A DNA stretch of 32,000 nt from Xanthomonas campestris pv. campestris str. ATCC 33913 (GTDB taxonomy: Bacteria > Pseudomonadota > Gammaproteobacteria > Xanthomonadales > Xanthomonadaceae), in assembly GCF_000007145.1 (NCBI RefSeq), contig NC_003902.1, forward strand, positions 1,057,436 to 1,089,435, written 5' to 3'. A program made the position numbers and the translations under genes. The notes below the pieces were generated by a model, which did not search any database, was not told the DNA's origin, and saw only the letters and a list, made by a program, of their open reading frames with translations. Positions 3,859 through 30,921 of this stretch are shown piece after piece. Every line of letters starts with the position of its first letter. Position 1 is the stretch's first letter.

Positions 3859-4401
3859 ATGAACACTCGTCTCGAAAAGTTTTACAAGGAAAACGTGGTG
3901 CCGGCCCTGATGAAGGAATTCGGCTACACCAATCCGATGGAAGTGCCGAAGCTGGTCAAGGTCACGCTCAACATGGGCGTGGGCGAAGCGGCAACCAACA
4001 AGAAGATCCTGGAAAATGCGGTCGCCGACATGTCCAAGATTTCCGGTCAAAAGCCGGTGGTCACCAAGTCGCGCGTTTCGGTCGCATCGTTCAAGATCCG
4101 CGACGGTTGGCCGATCGGCTGCAAGACCACGTTGCGTCGCGCCAAGATGTACGAGTTTCTGGACCGTCTGATCAACATCTCGTTGCCGCGCGTGCGCGAC
4201 TTCCGTGGTGTCTCGGGTCGCTCCTTTGACGGTCGTGGCAATTTCAACATGGGTGTGAAGGAGCAGATCATCTTCCCGGAAATCGACTTCGACGCCGTCG
4301 ACGCGATTCGCGGTATGGATATCGCCATCACCACCACCGCCAAGACGGATGCGGAAGCGAAGGCGCTGCTGGCAGCGTTCAAGTTCCCGTTCCGTAACTG
4401 A
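3859..4401 (+). CDS. rplE: 50S ribosomal protein L5
   Basis: 180-aa ORF, L5-like throughout ([11 protein letters not shown]..., [18 protein letters not shown]). Confidence 0.98.
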
Positions 4402-4419
4402 CCGTCGAGGACATCCGAA

Positions 4420-4725
4420 ATGGCAAAGACCTCCATGATCCACCGCGACATCAAGCGGGCAAAGCTGGCAAAGAAGTTCGCCGGCAAGCGTGATGCGCTG
4501 AAGAAGATCCTCTCCAGTCAGGATGCGTCCTACGAAGAGAAGATCGATGCGTCGACCAAGTTGCAGAAGCTGCCGCGCGATTCGTCGCCGAGCCGCCACC
4601 GCAACCGTTGCGAGCTGTCCGGTCGTCCGCGCGGTGTCTACCGCAAGTTCGGTCTTGGTCGCAACATGCTGCGCAAGGCAACCATGAACGGTGACGTTCC
4701 GGGTCTGCGCAAGGCCAGCTGGTAA
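4420..4725 (+). CDS. rpsN: 30S ribosomal protein S14
   Basis: 101-aa ORF ending ...[17 protein letters not shown], the long (non-zinc) S14 form. Confidence 0.97.
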
Positions 4726-4777
4726 TCACAATTCGGCCGCTCGCGGCCGGTTGGAACAGGTTTGTTCTGTTCAACAA

Positions 4778-4807
4778 GGGAGTCCGACGCAAGTCGGGCT
4801 CTTTTGT
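4778..4807 (+). terminator. Intrinsic-terminator-like hairpin inside the spc operon, between rpsN and rpsH
   Basis: GGGAGTCCGAC-GCAA-GTCGGGCTC followed by TTTTGT. The stem is 9-11 bp with one or more G.U pairs, a GNRA loop and a U tract, in sense orientation. Confidence 0.6.
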
Positions 4808-4930
4808 CGTATACTTCCGCTTCTGTCTTGCCCGTGAGGGTGGGGTGAAGCGTTCAAGGGTCCTGGCCCATCCCCAGGAAAACACAAGATTTTCGCGAAA
4901 GCGGATATCGGTGCACTCAAAGGTACTTAT

Positions 4931-5329
4931 ATGAGCATGACTGATCCCATCGCCGACCTGCTGGTTCGCATCAAGAATGCGGCCGCGGTTGGTAAGCAGA
5001 CGGTGAAATTGCCGTCATCCAAGATCAAGGTTGCGATCGCCCAAGTCCTGAAGGACGAGGGTTACATTACTGACCTGCGCGTGACAGCGACCGAGAACAA
5101 CAAGTCGGAGCTGGAAATCGTGCTGAAGTATTTCGAAGGCCGTCCGGTCATCGAGACCCTGAAGCGTTTCTCGCGCTCGGGTCTGCGCCAGTACCGTGGC
5201 AAGACCGAACTGCCCAAGGTCCTGGGTGGCCTGGGTATCGCCATCATCTCCACGTCGAAGGGCATCATGACCGATGCGCAGGCTCGCGAAGCCGGCGTTG
5301 GTGGTGAAGTCCTGTGCTTCGTGGCCTAA
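4931..5329 (+). CDS. rpsH: 30S ribosomal protein S8
   Basis: 132-aa [20 protein letters not shown]... SD AAAGG at 4919-4923. Confidence 0.97.
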
Positions 5330-5344
5330 GGGAAGGAATCGAAC

Positions 5345-5872
5345 ATGTCCCGTGTAGCCAAGAAGCCTGTGTCCCTTCCGAAGGGTGTTGAGCTCAACGT
5401 CCAGCCCGAGCTGATCAGCGTCAAGGGCCCGAAGGGCACCCTGACCCTGCAGAAGCCGGTCGGCGTTGAAATCGCCATCGACGGCGACGTTGCAACCCTG
5501 TCGGCCAATGATCCGTCGCAGATCGCCATCACCGGCACCGTGCGCGCGATCCTCGCCAACATGATCAAGGGCGTTTCCGAAGGTTTCGAGCGCAAGCTCG
5601 AGCTGGTGGGCGTCGGTTATCGTGCCGCCATGCAGGGCAAGGATCTGAGCCTGGCGCTCGGCTTCTCGCACCCGCTGGTGTTCGTGGCGCCGGAAGGCAT
5701 CACGCTGTCGACCCCGACCCAGACCGAAATCCTGGTCCAGGGCGCAGACAAGCAGCGCGTCGGCGAAGTCGCCGCCAAGATCCGCGGTTTCCGTCCGCCG
5801 GAGCCCTATAAGGGCAAGGGTGTGAAGTACGCCGGTGAAGTCATCATTCGCAAGGAAGCCAAGAAGGCTTAA
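5345..5872 (+). CDS. rplF: 50S ribosomal protein L6
   Basis: 175-aa [20 protein letters not shown]...[10 protein letters not shown]. Confidence 0.98.
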
Positions 5873-14910: not shown

Positions 14911-15136
14911 GAGCAGCGATCAAAACGACTGCGCAGCCGCCAGGCGGGCGCGGCCGGTGCTCGGAATCGGCATGTACCCCGTACACGCCGGTTCCTCCGC
15001 GCCGTCCGCACCCACCTGACGGCTGCTCGCTACGTTTTGTTAGCCGCTCTAAACGCGCGTGCGCATGACGTGATGCTCATGCCGCTTGCGGCATGCTCCT
15101 GCAGCCATCCCTCTTTCCCCCCACAGGAGGAACGGT

Positions 15137-23125: not shown

Positions 23126-23587
23126 TCAGGACGCGGTGCGTGGCCGCAGTTTCTGCACGCGGTAGAACGTATGGTCACCGATGGTGGCCACCTGATACGC
23201 ATTGCGCCAACTCGGGGTAGCAATGGCGCTGGCAGCGAAGTGACTTGCGCCTGGCACGATTTCTTTGCGCTGGCCTACCGGTAGCGCCCAATTGCGTTCC
23301 GCAGCCAGCGCCACGTCCAACGCCTTGTTCCAGGCATCGTCGTTCTTCAGCTGGGTGCCGGGTGACACGATGGTCGGCGCGAATTGCTTGCGCGCGGTCA
23401 CCACCTGACACATCGAATCGCCCCACAGACCACTGTCCAGGCGACGCAGTGCAACTTCCGCAACCGCCTGCTGACCACGCAAGGTCTGATCACGCGCTTC
23501 CAGGTACACGGTGGTACTCAAACACAACGAATCTGCTGCAGGCTGCGGCAATAATTGCGACAGCCAAAGTATCCAGGCCAGTTTCAT
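23126..23587 (-). CDS. Cell wall hydrolase, SleB/Hydrolase_2 family, secreted
   Basis: Start moved to ATG 23587, preceded by AAGGAG. 153 aa with signal-like MKLAWILWLSQLL and the motifs MCQVVTARKQFAP and GASHFAA...PSW. Confidence 0.8.
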   Translation of the reverse strand: MKLAWILWLSQLLPQPAADSLCLSTTVYLEARDQTLRGQQAVAEVALRRLDSGLWGDSMCQVVTARKQFAPTIVSPGTQLKNDDAWNKALDVALAAERNWALPVGQRKEIVPGASHFAASAIATPSWRNAYQVATIGDHTFYRVQKLRPRTAS

Positions 23588-25286
23588 AGAACTCCTTGCT
23601 CCGTATGGGCCCATCCACAGGGTGTCCAATGCGAACACACCAGTGCGGGAGGCTTGGCGTCATGGGGAGGCGACCTGTCACGGGCCGCCCGGTCTCCGGC
23701 GAAAGGAAGAATCTGCCGAAGGTGCCCGCCGAATCAGGCGGGTCAAAAAGTTGGCGCAAGGTAGGCGCCGATCACACAATCTTGGCTGAATGGGCGGGGT
23801 TGACGGCGGTCATTGCTTGCTGGATCAGCGATGTGGCGATGACCGTCTCTGCACCGCAGCGCGCAGTGCGCGTCGCATTGCTGTAGCGACGCGGTGCTGA
23901 TGCAAATAATTTGTTGGCGTTGCACAGATGTCTTCGCGAAATCACACCGATGACGTGCGGGAATTCACGTTGGCTGCACATGTGGTTTGCTGTGAAGCTT
24001 ACGAGCTATGTAGTGACGTGATTTGCTGAGGTTATGCGGTAAGGCAACTGTGGTGCGGGGTGTGCGCTGTTGCGCTGCTGCCAGCAGGTGCAGCCAATGT
24101 CTCTGTTGATGTCGTCTGTAGCTTGCCTGTTCTCTGCAGAACGTTGTGCATTGAGATGTCTGCAACCGCGCGCAGCGATTTGCCACCTTTCAGTGGCCAG
24201 TACGTTATGCGGCGACGACTGCAGCAGGACGTCATCTCTTGGCTAGTCGGGCATGTGTGTTGCGTGTGCTCCGATCATGTTCTCGTTATGCGGCGCGGTG
24301 CGGGTTGTTTGGTAGCGAGCAATTGATTGACTCATATCGACGGTCTGGCGTGGCGATGTTGAAGCTGCATGTTGTCGCTTCGGCCTTGTTCTTCCGTTCG
24401 AAGTGATGAGCGTCGTAGGTGCGTGCTTCACGCGCAGACCGAATGTTGCCGATCACGCGATCGCAGATTTCGTCAGTGTTGTTGGGTTGTCGTACGAAGT
24501 CGCCTAGCAACTTCCCATGGTGAGCGGGGTTGCTGTGTCCAGATGATGATTTATGCTCTGGAATGTCTGGCGCGTGCAGCGCTTGCGGCGTGTTCAATCG
24601 AAGCTTGATCGAAGTGCGGCGACAAACGACGTCCTTTCTGCATGCTGGTGCTTGCAAGTCGACATCGTTTTATCTGGTCCCAGGTGAACCAGATTGCTGG
24701 CTCTGAATTCACGCGATGGGCACTGCGTTGAATGTCGACAACGGTTCTTGCTCATTGGCAACCAAGCAATGAGATGCCATGACACAGGTGAGAAGAAGCC
24801 GCACGCGGATCATTGCTCGAGGTGAGTCGTCTGTCCAAACCGTCAGCGTGTACATCGCAATCTGGTTCGGCAGGTTGCTCGCATTGCTCAGGCGAACTGC
24901 CCGCTTTGTAGTGTGCTCAAAAATGCAGCAGCCAAAGAGGCAGTGGTTCGCATCAACACCGTGTCGCTCGACGCAAAGAAGCCAGCTTCAAGTAGATGTA
25001 AGTCCGCTGCGCTGGGCGAAAGGTGCGGTCGCTGCACTCGTTGCGGTTGGCGAGAACGAAATCGAAGTAAAGAGTTTTCCTCGTCTTTGGGCAGTTGCGG
25101 CGATGGAGAACTCGGCATGTCGCCTACGCTGCACGGCGCAGCGATGAGAGAGCATGTGTTGCGTGCCATGCAATCACTCCGCAGATCCAGCGTGCATGTT
25201 TCGTTGATCGCTGCTGCAATGGATGCCGCTTGCTAAGGCCAAGCGAGCTATCTGACCAATCAGGCGCATGGCAGTAAACTGAGTAG
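23588..25286. other. ORF-less, compositionally atypical island (lower GC, G+T-rich + strand)
   Basis: No ORF longer than 123 codons in any frame, and no recognisable translation. Hand counts of 60-nt lines give 50-53% GC in five lines and 60% in a sixth, versus 68% and 78% in two flanking-gene lines. Confidence 0.6.
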
Positions 25287-26648
25287 CTAGCTACGAATTC
25301 GTATGCAATGCCTGCCACAGGGTAGTGCGATCAGCGACCAACCACGTCGCGGCGCGAGCCCCGATTTTGCAAGCGGTCTTCGGTTGAGTCGATTGCGTAG
25401 CCCGTTGGCATACGCCAGCAGCAGACAGCCGGTTCCGCACACCATCGGGCCCGCTGCCATGGCCCAGGCCAGGTCGACGTGACCACGCCCGTGGCCGTCC
25501 CCGAGATTGAGCATCAGCCCGATCAAGATGCTGCCCATTGCCAATGCCACCTGCGCGCAGGCGGTGAGTCGCGCGACGCCGGCGGCATGCTGTGCCGGCT
25601 GCTGGCACGACAGTTCGGCATGGCGCGCCCAGACCCATTGCCCGGCGCTGCCGCCTGCCATCCCCATGCCGAAGGCCATGGCGGTGTCCAGCCACAGCGC
25701 ATGACCTGCACCCGCCGCAAAGCTCGTCCCCAAAGCCGCCAGCACCGCGCCGCTGCCTGCAAGACGCGGCAGTGCGTTAGTGCGCCAGCGTGCGGCCAGT
25801 GGCTGCACAGCAACTGTTCCCAGTGCGTAGCCCATCAGAATGGCGCTGCACCAGCCTGGCGCACCGATGCGCGATTGCGCGAGATAGGGCGCCAACTTGG
25901 TGAAGGTGGGCAGGGCACAGCACAGCAGCGCCATCACTGCAAACGTCGACAGCTGATCGGCCTGCCGAGCTGTCACCGGCACTGTGCGTGGTGCTGGGGC
26001 AAGCGCCTGGGTGTAAGGACGCAATGCCTGACGCAGCCACGCAGCCGACAACAGCGCGATGCTGCTGACCACCGCAACCACCATCAACGCGGTCCAGGGT
26101 GCTGACGGCTGGTGGCTCTGCAGCACCAGCCCGATCGCCGCACTGATCGACACTGCTGCCAGGCCGCTGCCGATCAGCCGTAGTGCGCTGACGCCGCGCG
26201 CGCCGCGCCAGGGCCAACGCCCAAGCCCCAACAAGGCATTCTGTGCGACGTCGCCCACCGCGTAGGCAGCACGGAAGGGCAGGCTGAGCAGCAGCACGCA
26301 GCCCAGGCGCGTGCTGGCCGGCAGCAGCGGCACCAGGAACAGCAACAACAAGCTCAGTGCCGCCAGCGCGATGCCGCGCCATTGCGATCGCCCCGCCCAC
26401 GCCAGGCTGGTGCCCGCGCCCCAACGTCGCGCGGCGAGCAGGCCCATTGCCGCGCTGAGGAGCAGGCCAGCTGCCACCGCGCAGCCGGCTGCGATTGCAT
26501 CCAGGCCGGCATGCTCAGTGAGCGCGAAGATCAGCAGGAGCTCGCCGGTGTACCAGAGCAGGCTCTTGCCGAAGTGCGCACCGGCATAGGCGCGCAGTGT
26601 TGCCGCCGGTAGAGCCGGCAGCAAGGGCAGGGGACGGTGCGCGTGCAT
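25287..26648 (-). CDS. MFS/GPH-type transporter
   Basis: 453-aa highly hydrophobic ORF with about 12 predicted helices. The N-terminal FGKSLLWYTGELLLIFALTE resembles the GPH/MFS motif. The basic C-terminal tail is encoded by the lower-GC border region. Confidence 0.75.
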   Translation of the reverse strand: MHAHRPLPLLPALPAATLRAYAGAHFGKSLLWYTGELLLIFALTEHAGLDAIAAGCAVAAGLLLSAAMGLLAARRWGAGTSLAWAGRSQWRGIALAALSLLLLFLVPLLPASTRLGCVLLLSLPFRAAYAVGDVAQNALLGLGRWPWRGARGVSALRLIGSGLAAVSISAAIGLVLQSHQPSAPWTALMVVAVVSSIALLSAAWLRQALRPYTQALAPAPRTVPVTARQADQLSTFAVMALLCCALPTFTKLAPYLAQSRIGAPGWCSAILMGYALGTVAVQPLAARWRTNALPRLAGSGAVLAALGTSFAAGAGHALWLDTAMAFGMGMAGGSAGQWVWARHAELSCQQPAQHAAGVARLTACAQVALAMGSILIGLMLNLGDGHGRGHVDLAWAMAAGPMVCGTGCLLLAYANGLRNRLNRRPLAKSGLAPRRGWSLIALPCGRHCIRIRS

Positions 26649-26791: not shown

Positions 26792-29275
<2,484 letters not shown>

Positions 29276-29380: not shown

Positions 29381-29423
29381 CCGCAACCCGCAACCCGCAA
29401 CCCGCAACCCGCAACCCGCAACC
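29381..29423. repeat. Heptanucleotide tandem repeat (CGCAACC) x6
   Basis: Perfect period-7 tract of 43 nt, lying 62 nt beyond the stop codon of the MDR dehydrogenase gene (29485-29487). Confidence 0.95.
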
Positions 29424-30507: not shown

Positions 30508-30921
30508 CGGAGCGCTCCTAGTGGGGAGTTCAGGGTGCGTTGTGTGGGAAGTTCCCCGCAACCACCAACCCCACAATTCAGGTCGGGCGGGCCTTTCCGT
30601 TCACCAACGTGCACTTGGACACGGTCTTCACGCACCTGCCCAAGGCGTTCAACCGACGTATTCAACTGGGTAAATTGGGGTGGCGTTCATCTGCACTGCA
30701 TGTCCGAACTGGGCGCCCGGTCGCACTCCTCATAAAGCTGTATACGTAGGATTAGCAGCGTTTGCGGCGGGCGGCATTTGCTTTCACATGTTATATGACC
30801 GTTAACGCGATCTTCACTAAGCCCGGCTTAATCTGCGCCCCGATGGCTCTGGATGTGACGAGCATCTTTTACCAAGAACAACGCCTCTATCGGTTTATCT
30901 CCCAAAGAAGGAGCTGTATAC

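Follow-up and report, generated by a model that had tools for sequence, protein, structure and literature searches.

A gene-free island upstream of a SleB-like hydrolase gene in Xanthomonas campestris: probable neutral spacer DNA next to a candidate structured leader RNA

A long stretch of bacterial DNA lying between protein-coding genes and devoid of genes of its own can be compared with several kinds of described systems, such as the non-coding RNAs OLE, GOLLD, HEARO, ROOL and raiA, the regulatory 5' leaders of individual genes, and the remnants of gene decay. Among the leaders, GGA motifs at the Shine-Dalgarno (SD) sequence are the hallmark of the sites bound by CsrA/RsmA, and RsmA reportedly acts on 5' untranslated regions in Xanthomonas. 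In the same genus the CUT-type loci, which Blanvillain et al. are said to have described in 2007, combine a TonB-dependent receptor (TBDR), an inner-membrane transporter, a regulator and degradative enzymes. Here we analyse a gene-free island of X. campestris pv. campestris ATCC 33913, located at positions 23588–25286 of a stretch of 32,000 nucleotides (contig NC_003902.1, positions 1,057,436 to 1,089,435; hereafter the window, to which all coordinates refer). The island is bounded by the ATG, at 23587, of a gene on the minus strand encoding a SleB-like cell-wall hydrolase (hyd, 23126–23587; PF07486, E 7.5e-16) and by the stop codon, at 25287, of an MFS-like gene, the order on the minus strand being fadH, MFS-like gene, island, hyd and GST.

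A preliminary description, made from the letters of the window, had reported here about 1.7 kb without an open reading frame (ORF) of more than 123 codons, and the ORF listing and the coordinates agree with it: the longest ORFs within the island are of 123 amino acids (24286–24657, minus strand) and 122 amino acids (24779–25147, plus strand). Our comparison with related loci indicates that the island is a composite of two unrelated parts, namely the control region of hyd (23582 to about 23826) and a filler (23827–25286). The reading as a whole, in which a neutral spacer remained after the loss of a gene cluster and lies beside a conserved and structured leader of hyd, is one that we hold with good confidence.

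The hyd control region and its candidate leader RNA

The comparison was based on 80 species-representative loci, gathered with hyd as the anchor. An intact gene aligning across the whole region, which the preliminary description had thought might exist elsewhere, did not emerge from a BLAST-type search of these loci, in which only the ~230 nt beside hyd (about 23588–23826) had homologs, with 82–89% identity in other Xanthomonas and a core kept into Stenotrophomonas and Pseudoxanthomonas. Within the species, seven X. campestris lineages were compared, including pv. raphani, pv. incanae and one divergent strain, and 1,064 4-fold degenerate sites from five flanking genes served as the synonymous yardstick. 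The 230-nt block has 1.7% segregating sites and a mean pairwise divergence (pi) of 0.50%, against 10.3% and 4.40% at the 4-fold sites, and is thus about 10-fold more conserved than synonymous sites. The same holds in other species, since in X. hortorum, X. arboricola/asclepiadis and X. floridensis/codiaei the hyd leaders diverge 3–10 times more slowly than 4-fold sites.

The conserved part was examined in an alignment of 59 hyd upstream regions. A first covariance model (R1), built on the automatic RNAalifold consensus, was discarded because it missed two hairpins, P2 and P4; a second model (R2), comprising the hairpins P1–P4, was searched in 100 sources covering 1.2 Mb. R2 gave one full-length match per source in 100 of 100, always abutting hyd, and in the window it matches 23582–23753 on the minus strand with 136 bits, so that the motif ends at the start codon. 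In a motif-first scan of metagenomes, anchored on one of the two invariant boxes of the motif (CUCCCCAUGACGCC), hyd lies directly downstream in 117 of 119 loci, while the remaining two contigs end too early. The hydrolase itself is 74–100% identical across all loci that bear the motif.

From 5' to 3', the predicted leader would start with three hairpins on the minus strand. P1 (CCCGCC...GGCGGG, 23725–23742), also found by RNAalifold, shows exchanges between CG and UA in 42 of 100 sequences and between AU and GC in 42 of 100. P2 (UUCGGC...GCCGGA, 23695–23720) has a loop of variable length and two-sided changes at 8 of 8 pairs (5 of 6 in the MAFFT alignment), and P3 (GGGCGGCC / GGUCGCCU, 23668–23690) is paired in 98% of the cells, with GC and AU swapped at two pairs. 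The invariant single-stranded box CUCCCCAUGACGCC (23656–23669), which resembles an anti-SD sequence, follows between P3 and P4. P4 (23605–23655), a long hairpin, varies in sequence and appears in the minimum free energy (MFE) structure of 80 of 80 unique sequences with a mean z of –2.4; of its outer 7 bp, 6.0 are paired compared with 3.6 when partners are swapped, and two-sided changes occur at 7 of 7 modelled pairs. The second box, ACGGAGCAAGGAG (23592–23604), invariant in the 59 aligned regions, contains the SD sequence and two GGA motifs and would be placed at the ribosome-binding site.

The pairing is well above what displaced or shuffled partners give. In the MAFFT alignment, P1–P3 together with a further candidate helix between an upstream box and the SD (see below) are 92.5% paired, against 35–54% when the partners are slid, and 115 compensatory cells are counted against 38.5±5.7 after shuffling (0 of 500 shuffles reach the observed value). 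The model-based alignment, which is fitted to the model and leans to it, is 89.8% paired, with two-sided changes at 22 of 29 pairs and 359 compensatory cells against 116±16. G-U pairs are frequent (the closing pair of P3 is G-U in 89 of 100 sequences) and work on the hyd-sense strand only, which assigns the structure to the hyd transcript. Covariation among orthologous intergenic regions, suggested by the preliminary description as a check on the whole island, is therefore present in the hyd-proximal ~230 nt, which that description had missed as a distinct unit.

The motif has one gene family downstream, always in the same orientation, and shows covariation and unpaired nucleotides that are invariant or almost so, as expected for cis-regulatory RNAs. 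No Rfam family matches the leader at E<=10, either here or in ten orthologous loci, and no published description of a leader for this hydrolase was found. The sequence evidence thus gives good support to an uncatalogued, structured, candidate cis-regulatory RNA of ~170 nt, strongly conserved. An upstream ORF starting at the AUG in CCCCAUGACGCC was also considered and rejected, as several species have AUA or ACU in place of the AUG, and the length downstream is variable.

The preliminary description had placed the promoter of the hydrolase gene in the island, and a conserved control region is indeed found next to hyd, for which a promoter role is inferred. A block upstream of the leader (23766–23826, minus strand), with ATTCAG at 23786–23791 and GTCAAC at 23799–23804, is kept from Xanthomonas to Pseudoxanthomonas and is presumably promoter or operator DNA of hyd. 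Between it and the leader lies the box CCTACCTTGCGCC (23753–23765, minus strand), which may be read either as a –10 hexamer TAnnnT with a GC-rich discriminator or, being complementary to the SD sequence GCAAGGAG, as the 5' arm of a helix formed with it. Since the T, A and T of the hexamer and the GC behind it never vary and the positions in the middle do so freely, a pattern characteristic of –10 hexamers, we lean to that reading, by a modest preference. The box:SD helix is 95.6% paired in the MAFFT alignment, with no covariation; if the box is transcribed, the helix appears in the MFE structure of 61% of 173 unique leaders, and roughly one leader in four has a mismatch at the helix centre.

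Upstream of the TAnnnT box the invariant DNA reads TGTCAA-N8-ATTCAG-N4-GATT. The spacing is not that of a sigma-70 –35 element, and the sequence may be a transcription-factor site. Inspection of the alignment led to the rejection of both a sigma-54 promoter and a sigma-70 –35 element at this place, as neither a consistent spacing nor a conserved GG is seen. A terminator-like hairpin at 23769–23753 (minus strand) was likewise rejected as a conserved terminator, since its 5' arm is not kept in other species.

As for the function of the leader, it most likely acts in cis on the translation of hyd or on the stability of its mRNA. Control at these levels is likelier than attenuation because no hairpin of the leader has a U-tract behind it. 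A specific form of this proposal, to be taken as tentative and rather doubtful, is that the leader belongs to a riboswitch-like class of sensors limited to the Lysobacteraceae/Xanthomonadaceae, which would link hyd translation to a signal such as a metabolite of the cell wall or envelope; if this were true, the sensor would govern a universally conserved SleB-like periplasmic cell-wall hydrolase. The competing view, that the leader senses no ligand and is controlled by a protein or a small RNA (e.g. RsmA/CsrA at the GGA motifs of ACGGAGCAAGGAG), or works as an RNA thermometer or stability element, is a serious one, to which we give somewhat less than an even chance. It agrees with the overlap of the two invariant GGA motifs with the SD sequence, with the lack of a terminator after any leader hairpin and with the partial occlusion of the SD in the predicted ensembles (probability of being unpaired 0.23–0.32), whereas an architecture of four hairpins, with another invariant single-stranded box 64 nt farther upstream, goes beyond what a simple RsmA site needs. 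Because two GGA motifs are present at the SD, RsmA/CsrA would be a reasonable effector.

Composition, divergence and contents of the filler

The preliminary description had singled out the island for its composition, from hand counts of 60-nt lines. Its counts are reproduced, the lines starting at 23881, 23941, 24001, 24301 and 24661 having a G+C (GC) content of 0.50–0.53, against 0.683 and 0.783 in the flanking-gene lines 26101 and 22801. In windows of 300 nt the GC of the island is 0.53–0.57, while the rest of the window averages 0.635, so that the departure from the genes is confirmed. Other intergenic stretches of the window (about 4650–4950, 30600–30900 and 800–1400) also have 0.50–0.57 GC, however, and a value of 0.55 is therefore not unusual for non-coding DNA. 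What is anomalous in the island is its length, not its composition.

The plus strand had also been described as G+T-rich and A-poor on the basis of line 24241, for which the recount gives 0.60 GC, a GC skew of +0.28 and an AT skew of –0.58. This skew holds for about 23800–24700 (A.166, C.231, G.321, T.282 on the plus strand) and not for 24701–25286, which is practically without AT skew, and the island's peak G+T of 0.633 barely tops the maximum elsewhere in the window (0.617), the extremes of coding DNA included. The filler can be divided accordingly into part A (23827–24700), G+T-rich on the plus strand, with pi 5.35% and 15.3% segregating sites, and part B (24701–25286), without AT skew, with pi 5.26% and 14.7% segregating sites, both being non-coding and specific to X. 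campestris.

Taken as a whole, in the seven lineages the filler has 15.1% segregating sites and a pi of 5.31%, both above the values of the 4-fold sites given above, and its alignment contains 88 gap columns. Against the most distant X. campestris strain it has diverged by 12–13.5%, compared with 6–6.6% at 4-fold sites, and in X. hortorum, X. arboricola/asclepiadis and X. floridensis/codiaei the fillers diverge at 1–2 times the rate of 4-fold sites. The polarised changes are close to compositional balance (34 GC to AT, 26 AT to GC). Divergence at or above the 4-fold rate, together with near-balanced substitutions, argues that the filler is unselected DNA, drifting neutrally at about the mutational GC equilibrium; the lower GC can be attributed to this equilibrium, and a foreign origin is not needed to explain it. 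The lack of conservation between strains, which the preliminary description had named as the mark of neutral junk, is what 23827–25286 displays.

Searches for a function or an origin of the filler were negative. The absence of a recognisable protein family, reported in the preliminary description, is borne out by Pfam, which returns none in the seven longest ORFs or in the six stop-masked frames, apart from two sub-threshold chance matches. A 3-nt codon periodicity is absent from the filler, and blastn and tblastx against the 80 related loci and the rest of the window give no match. At the gathering threshold Rfam finds nothing in the island, and with Rfam 15 at E<=10 the region 23400–25500 gives only a chance microRNA match. 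Neither promoter-like nor terminator-like matches are commoner in the island than in shuffled sequence (2 terminator-like matches found, 2.3 expected), and no meaningful direct, inverted or tandem repeats are present in it. A perfect 12-nt inverted repeat, GAACCAGATTGC / GCAATCTGGTTC (24686–24697 and 24857–24868, 159 nt apart), has a chance expectation of about 0.1; its reading as a miniature inverted-repeat transposable element was rejected, as the pair lacks a target-site duplication and extends no further, and it is probably fortuitous.

These results bear on the suggestion, also made in the preliminary description, of a long non-coding RNA (lncRNA). The filler might in principle be a functional, fast-evolving lncRNA, either a G+U-rich plus-strand transcript diverging from the hyd promoter and ending near 24750 or an RNA of the minus strand. 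The skew of about 23800–24700 does end near a terminator-like plus-strand hairpin (24726–24743), its direction is repeated in the non-homologous fillers of other species, the filler is kept at about 1.47 kb in every sampled X. campestris strain, and two overlapping minus-strand windows fold better than expected (24491–24690, z –3.1; 24591–24790, z –2.3). These two are exceptions, the fold z (dinucleotide shuffles, both strands) staying inside roughly ±1.3 in 28 of the 32 windows and near 0 on the plus strand, and when 24480–24880 of the minus strand is folded as a single 401-nt piece z is only –1.95. Moreover, a divergence that equals or exceeds the synonymous rate, numerous indels, the lack of a filler homolog in sister species, the lack of an Rfam match, a number of terminator-like matches no higher than in shuffles and the lack of a detected mutational strand asymmetry (see below) all speak against such an RNA, which we regard as very improbable.

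The third suggestion of the preliminary description, foreign DNA, fares little better as far as a recent gain is concerned. The filler would in this case have been acquired horizontally and inserted at a recombination hot spot rather than descend from an old gene cluster, and could be silenced by the H-NS-like XrvA/XrvB. Its restriction to one species, a GC below that of the flanking genes, the lack of homology to the genes of the ancestral cluster and the presence in X. bromi of an IS5-type transposase with an unrelated ORF at the same site are compatible with this. On the other side, the GC is that of ordinary intergenic DNA of the window, the substitution pattern is near compositional equilibrium, ORFs, mobility genes, tRNA genes, terminal or flanking repeats and target duplications are all lacking, and distant-mode blastn against 72,556 plasmids and 50,697 phage records reveals no similarity; the adjacent MFS-like gene is, in addition, orthologous by position across Xanthomonas. 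We therefore judge a horizontal origin unlikely. The island is mostly ordinary, a neutral and lineage-specific spacer and most probably not an lncRNA, and the evidence contains no pointer to recent foreign DNA; of the earlier suggestions, that of decayed, lineage-specific non-coding DNA is supported for 23827–25286.

History of the fadH–hyd interval

In related genomes the interval between fadH (26792–29101, minus strand, in the window) and hyd differs widely. In Stenotrophomonas, Pseudoxanthomonas, Luteimonas, an X. albilineans-like strain and X. cucurbitae, the two genes are about 300 nt apart. In the early-branching X. translucens and X. sacchari the interval has the order fadH-Rap1a(–)-MFS-ROK(–)-TonB receptor-GDPD, and towards hyd the order is MFS-ROK-TBDR-GDPD-hyd in X. 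maliensis and TBDR-GDPD-GDPD-ORF500-hyd in X. translucens. Where X. campestris has its filler, X. maliensis, X. translucens and X. sacchari have intact genes in the syntenic position. The ORF500 of X. translucens (locus L019, 4207–5709), directly upstream of the hyd leader, encodes an Ala-rich product of 500 amino acids with an N-terminal hydrophobic segment, and has no Pfam family and no homolog in the other 79 loci.

In group-2 Xanthomonas only a strongly diverged MFS-like gene is left, with 0.5–1 kb of ORF-less filler of 47–58% GC. X. nasturtii has an MFS with an internal deletion and X. arboricola has none; in X. cucurbitae the content of the whole interval is gone, and in X. bromi (locus L011, about 3870–5400) the MFS and the filler are replaced by an IS5-type DDE transposase (DDE_Tnp_1, PF01609) followed by an ORF of 270 amino acids without a Pfam family. 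The fadH–hyd interval is a plasticity hot spot. Sensitive blastn among the fillers of 11 species gives matches between the closest relatives only, and indicates no shared origin.

From this distribution, an ancestral cluster between fadH and hyd would have comprised Rap1a, an MFS gene, a ROK regulator/kinase, a TonB-dependent receptor, one or two GDPD genes and, in X. translucens, ORF500. Group-2 Xanthomonas would have lost it, leaving the spacer as a stump between the surviving MFS-like gene and hyd, and 23582 to about 23826 would be the ancestral fadH–hyd intergenic region.

The MFS-like gene (25287–26648, minus strand), the only cluster survivor in the window, appears to be eroding in its turn. 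Its protein, with no Pfam match at E<=1, is 97–100% identical within X. campestris, with an identical sequence in hundreds of assemblies, and at most 66% identical to that of other species, while the flanking proteins are 86–99% identical. Codon positions 1+2 diverge by 2.0%, one third of the 6.4% found at 4-fold sites, and the C-terminus varies by strain, with different stop codons (453 versus 435/436 amino acids). The gene looks to be under relaxed selection and heading to loss.

Two further features of the window were noted. The only Rfam family found in it is the small RNA sX9 (RF02228), at 14972–15045 on the plus strand, with 91.8 bits. In the ADH–fadH intergenic region, a perfect 7-nt tandem repeat (CCGCAAC, 6.1 copies, 29381–29423) differs in copy number among X. 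campestris strains (several units more in L085, fewer in L086), as a marker of the variable-number tandem repeat type would.

Weighing of the composite reading and comparison with known systems

Several observations weigh against the composite reading. Searches of the fillers by tblastn, blastn (word 7) and tblastx with ROK, TBDR, GDPD, GDPD2, Rap1a and ORF500 gave only composition-driven noise, so that only its position speaks for deriving the filler from the cluster; instead of decaying in situ, the cluster could have given way to unrelated DNA. Every sampled X. campestris strain keeps 1.46–1.50 kb of filler, which is long for useless bacterial DNA. Among the closest strains the filler has diverged by 2.0–2.6%, below the overall 4-fold value of 4–5%; this divergence equals the 4-fold value of the adjacent hyd and GST (0.5–2.0%), and mosaic recombination is an alternative explanation for it. 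On the side of the leader, neither a terminator nor an unambiguous SD-sequestering helix has been defined. Finally, non-homologous fillers of other species repeat the skew, with a C+A-rich hyd-sense strand, most strongly beside the hyd promoter.

As to the extent of this skew, in the fillers of three other loci (L001, L005 and L009) and of the window the G+T of the hyd-sense strand is 0.39–0.46. The shared skew could be mutational, inherited, or due to selection for a C-rich, G-poor read-through RNA. Transcription-coupled mutation was rejected as its cause, as no asymmetry was seen between C>T and G>A (11 versus 14, in a small sample of 67 polarised substitutions). Inheritance from the cluster was also set aside: TBDR in antisense and ROK in sense do lean the same way (G+T 0.53–0.55 on the plus strand of the window), too weakly to account for 0.60.

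Untranslated, C-rich, G-poor and weakly folded RNA has the composition that Rho prefers. Read-through RNA from the MFS-like gene across the filler (minus strand) would be of this kind: it would be untranslated, the filler has C.32 and G.23 on that strand, and the MFE per 200 nt is –43 to –58 kcal/mol, against –66 to –77 kcal/mol for the plus strand. Since the minus-strand RNA is C-rich, G-poor and weakly folded, it is plausible that the spacer insulates hyd from MFS transcription through Rho-dependent termination. Such a passive insulation would be the only plausible role of the filler.

With these reservations, the composite reading carries a caution, namely that in a high-GC genome a long, ORF-less stretch of lower GC need not be either foreign DNA or an lncRNA. 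The fadH–hyd locus, found at several stages of cluster loss across Xanthomonas, offers a natural series in which reductive evolution can be followed cleanly. The leader is the part worth following up, although of modest interest: it is tied one-to-one to a hydrolase conserved across a family to which both major plant pathogens and the opportunistic Stenotrophomonas maltophilia belong, and provides a concrete handle on how hyd is regulated.

When the locus is compared with described systems, the filler shares with OLE, GOLLD, HEARO, ROOL and raiA the position in a long gene-free stretch between protein-coding genes, and differs from them in having no covariance-model match, no conservation beyond the species and no excess folding. 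It is closer to the remnants of gene decay, which it resembles in the lack of ORFs, a GC relaxed toward mutational equilibrium, a neutral rate, frequent indels and the occurrence of lineages at differing stages of loss (full cluster, MFS and filler, filler only, nothing). It departs from them in showing no recognisable homology to a parental gene, and for this reason it is not formally a pseudogene of a named gene; a pseudogene of an identifiable gene was in fact sought and rejected, as six-frame Pfam scans, tblastn/tblastx with the cluster genes and the lack of period-3 gave no detectable homology to an intact gene. The ancestral cluster, with its TonB-dependent receptor, MFS_2 transporter, ROK-family protein and GDPD phosphodiesterases, resembles the CUT-type loci; the window keeps only the diverged MFS-like gene, and the locus is no longer such a system. 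As for the candidate leader, it is like the ydaO (cyclic-di-AMP) riboswitch and the leaders of cell-wall hydrolase genes in being multi-hairpin, with invariant unpaired boxes, directly upstream of and exclusive to a hydrolase gene, and unlike them in having no Rfam match, no terminator, another architecture and a distribution in the Lysobacteraceae/Xanthomonadaceae. With the CsrA/RsmA-controlled 5' leaders it has in common the GGA at and beside the SD sequence, while its conserved, predicted structure is much larger.

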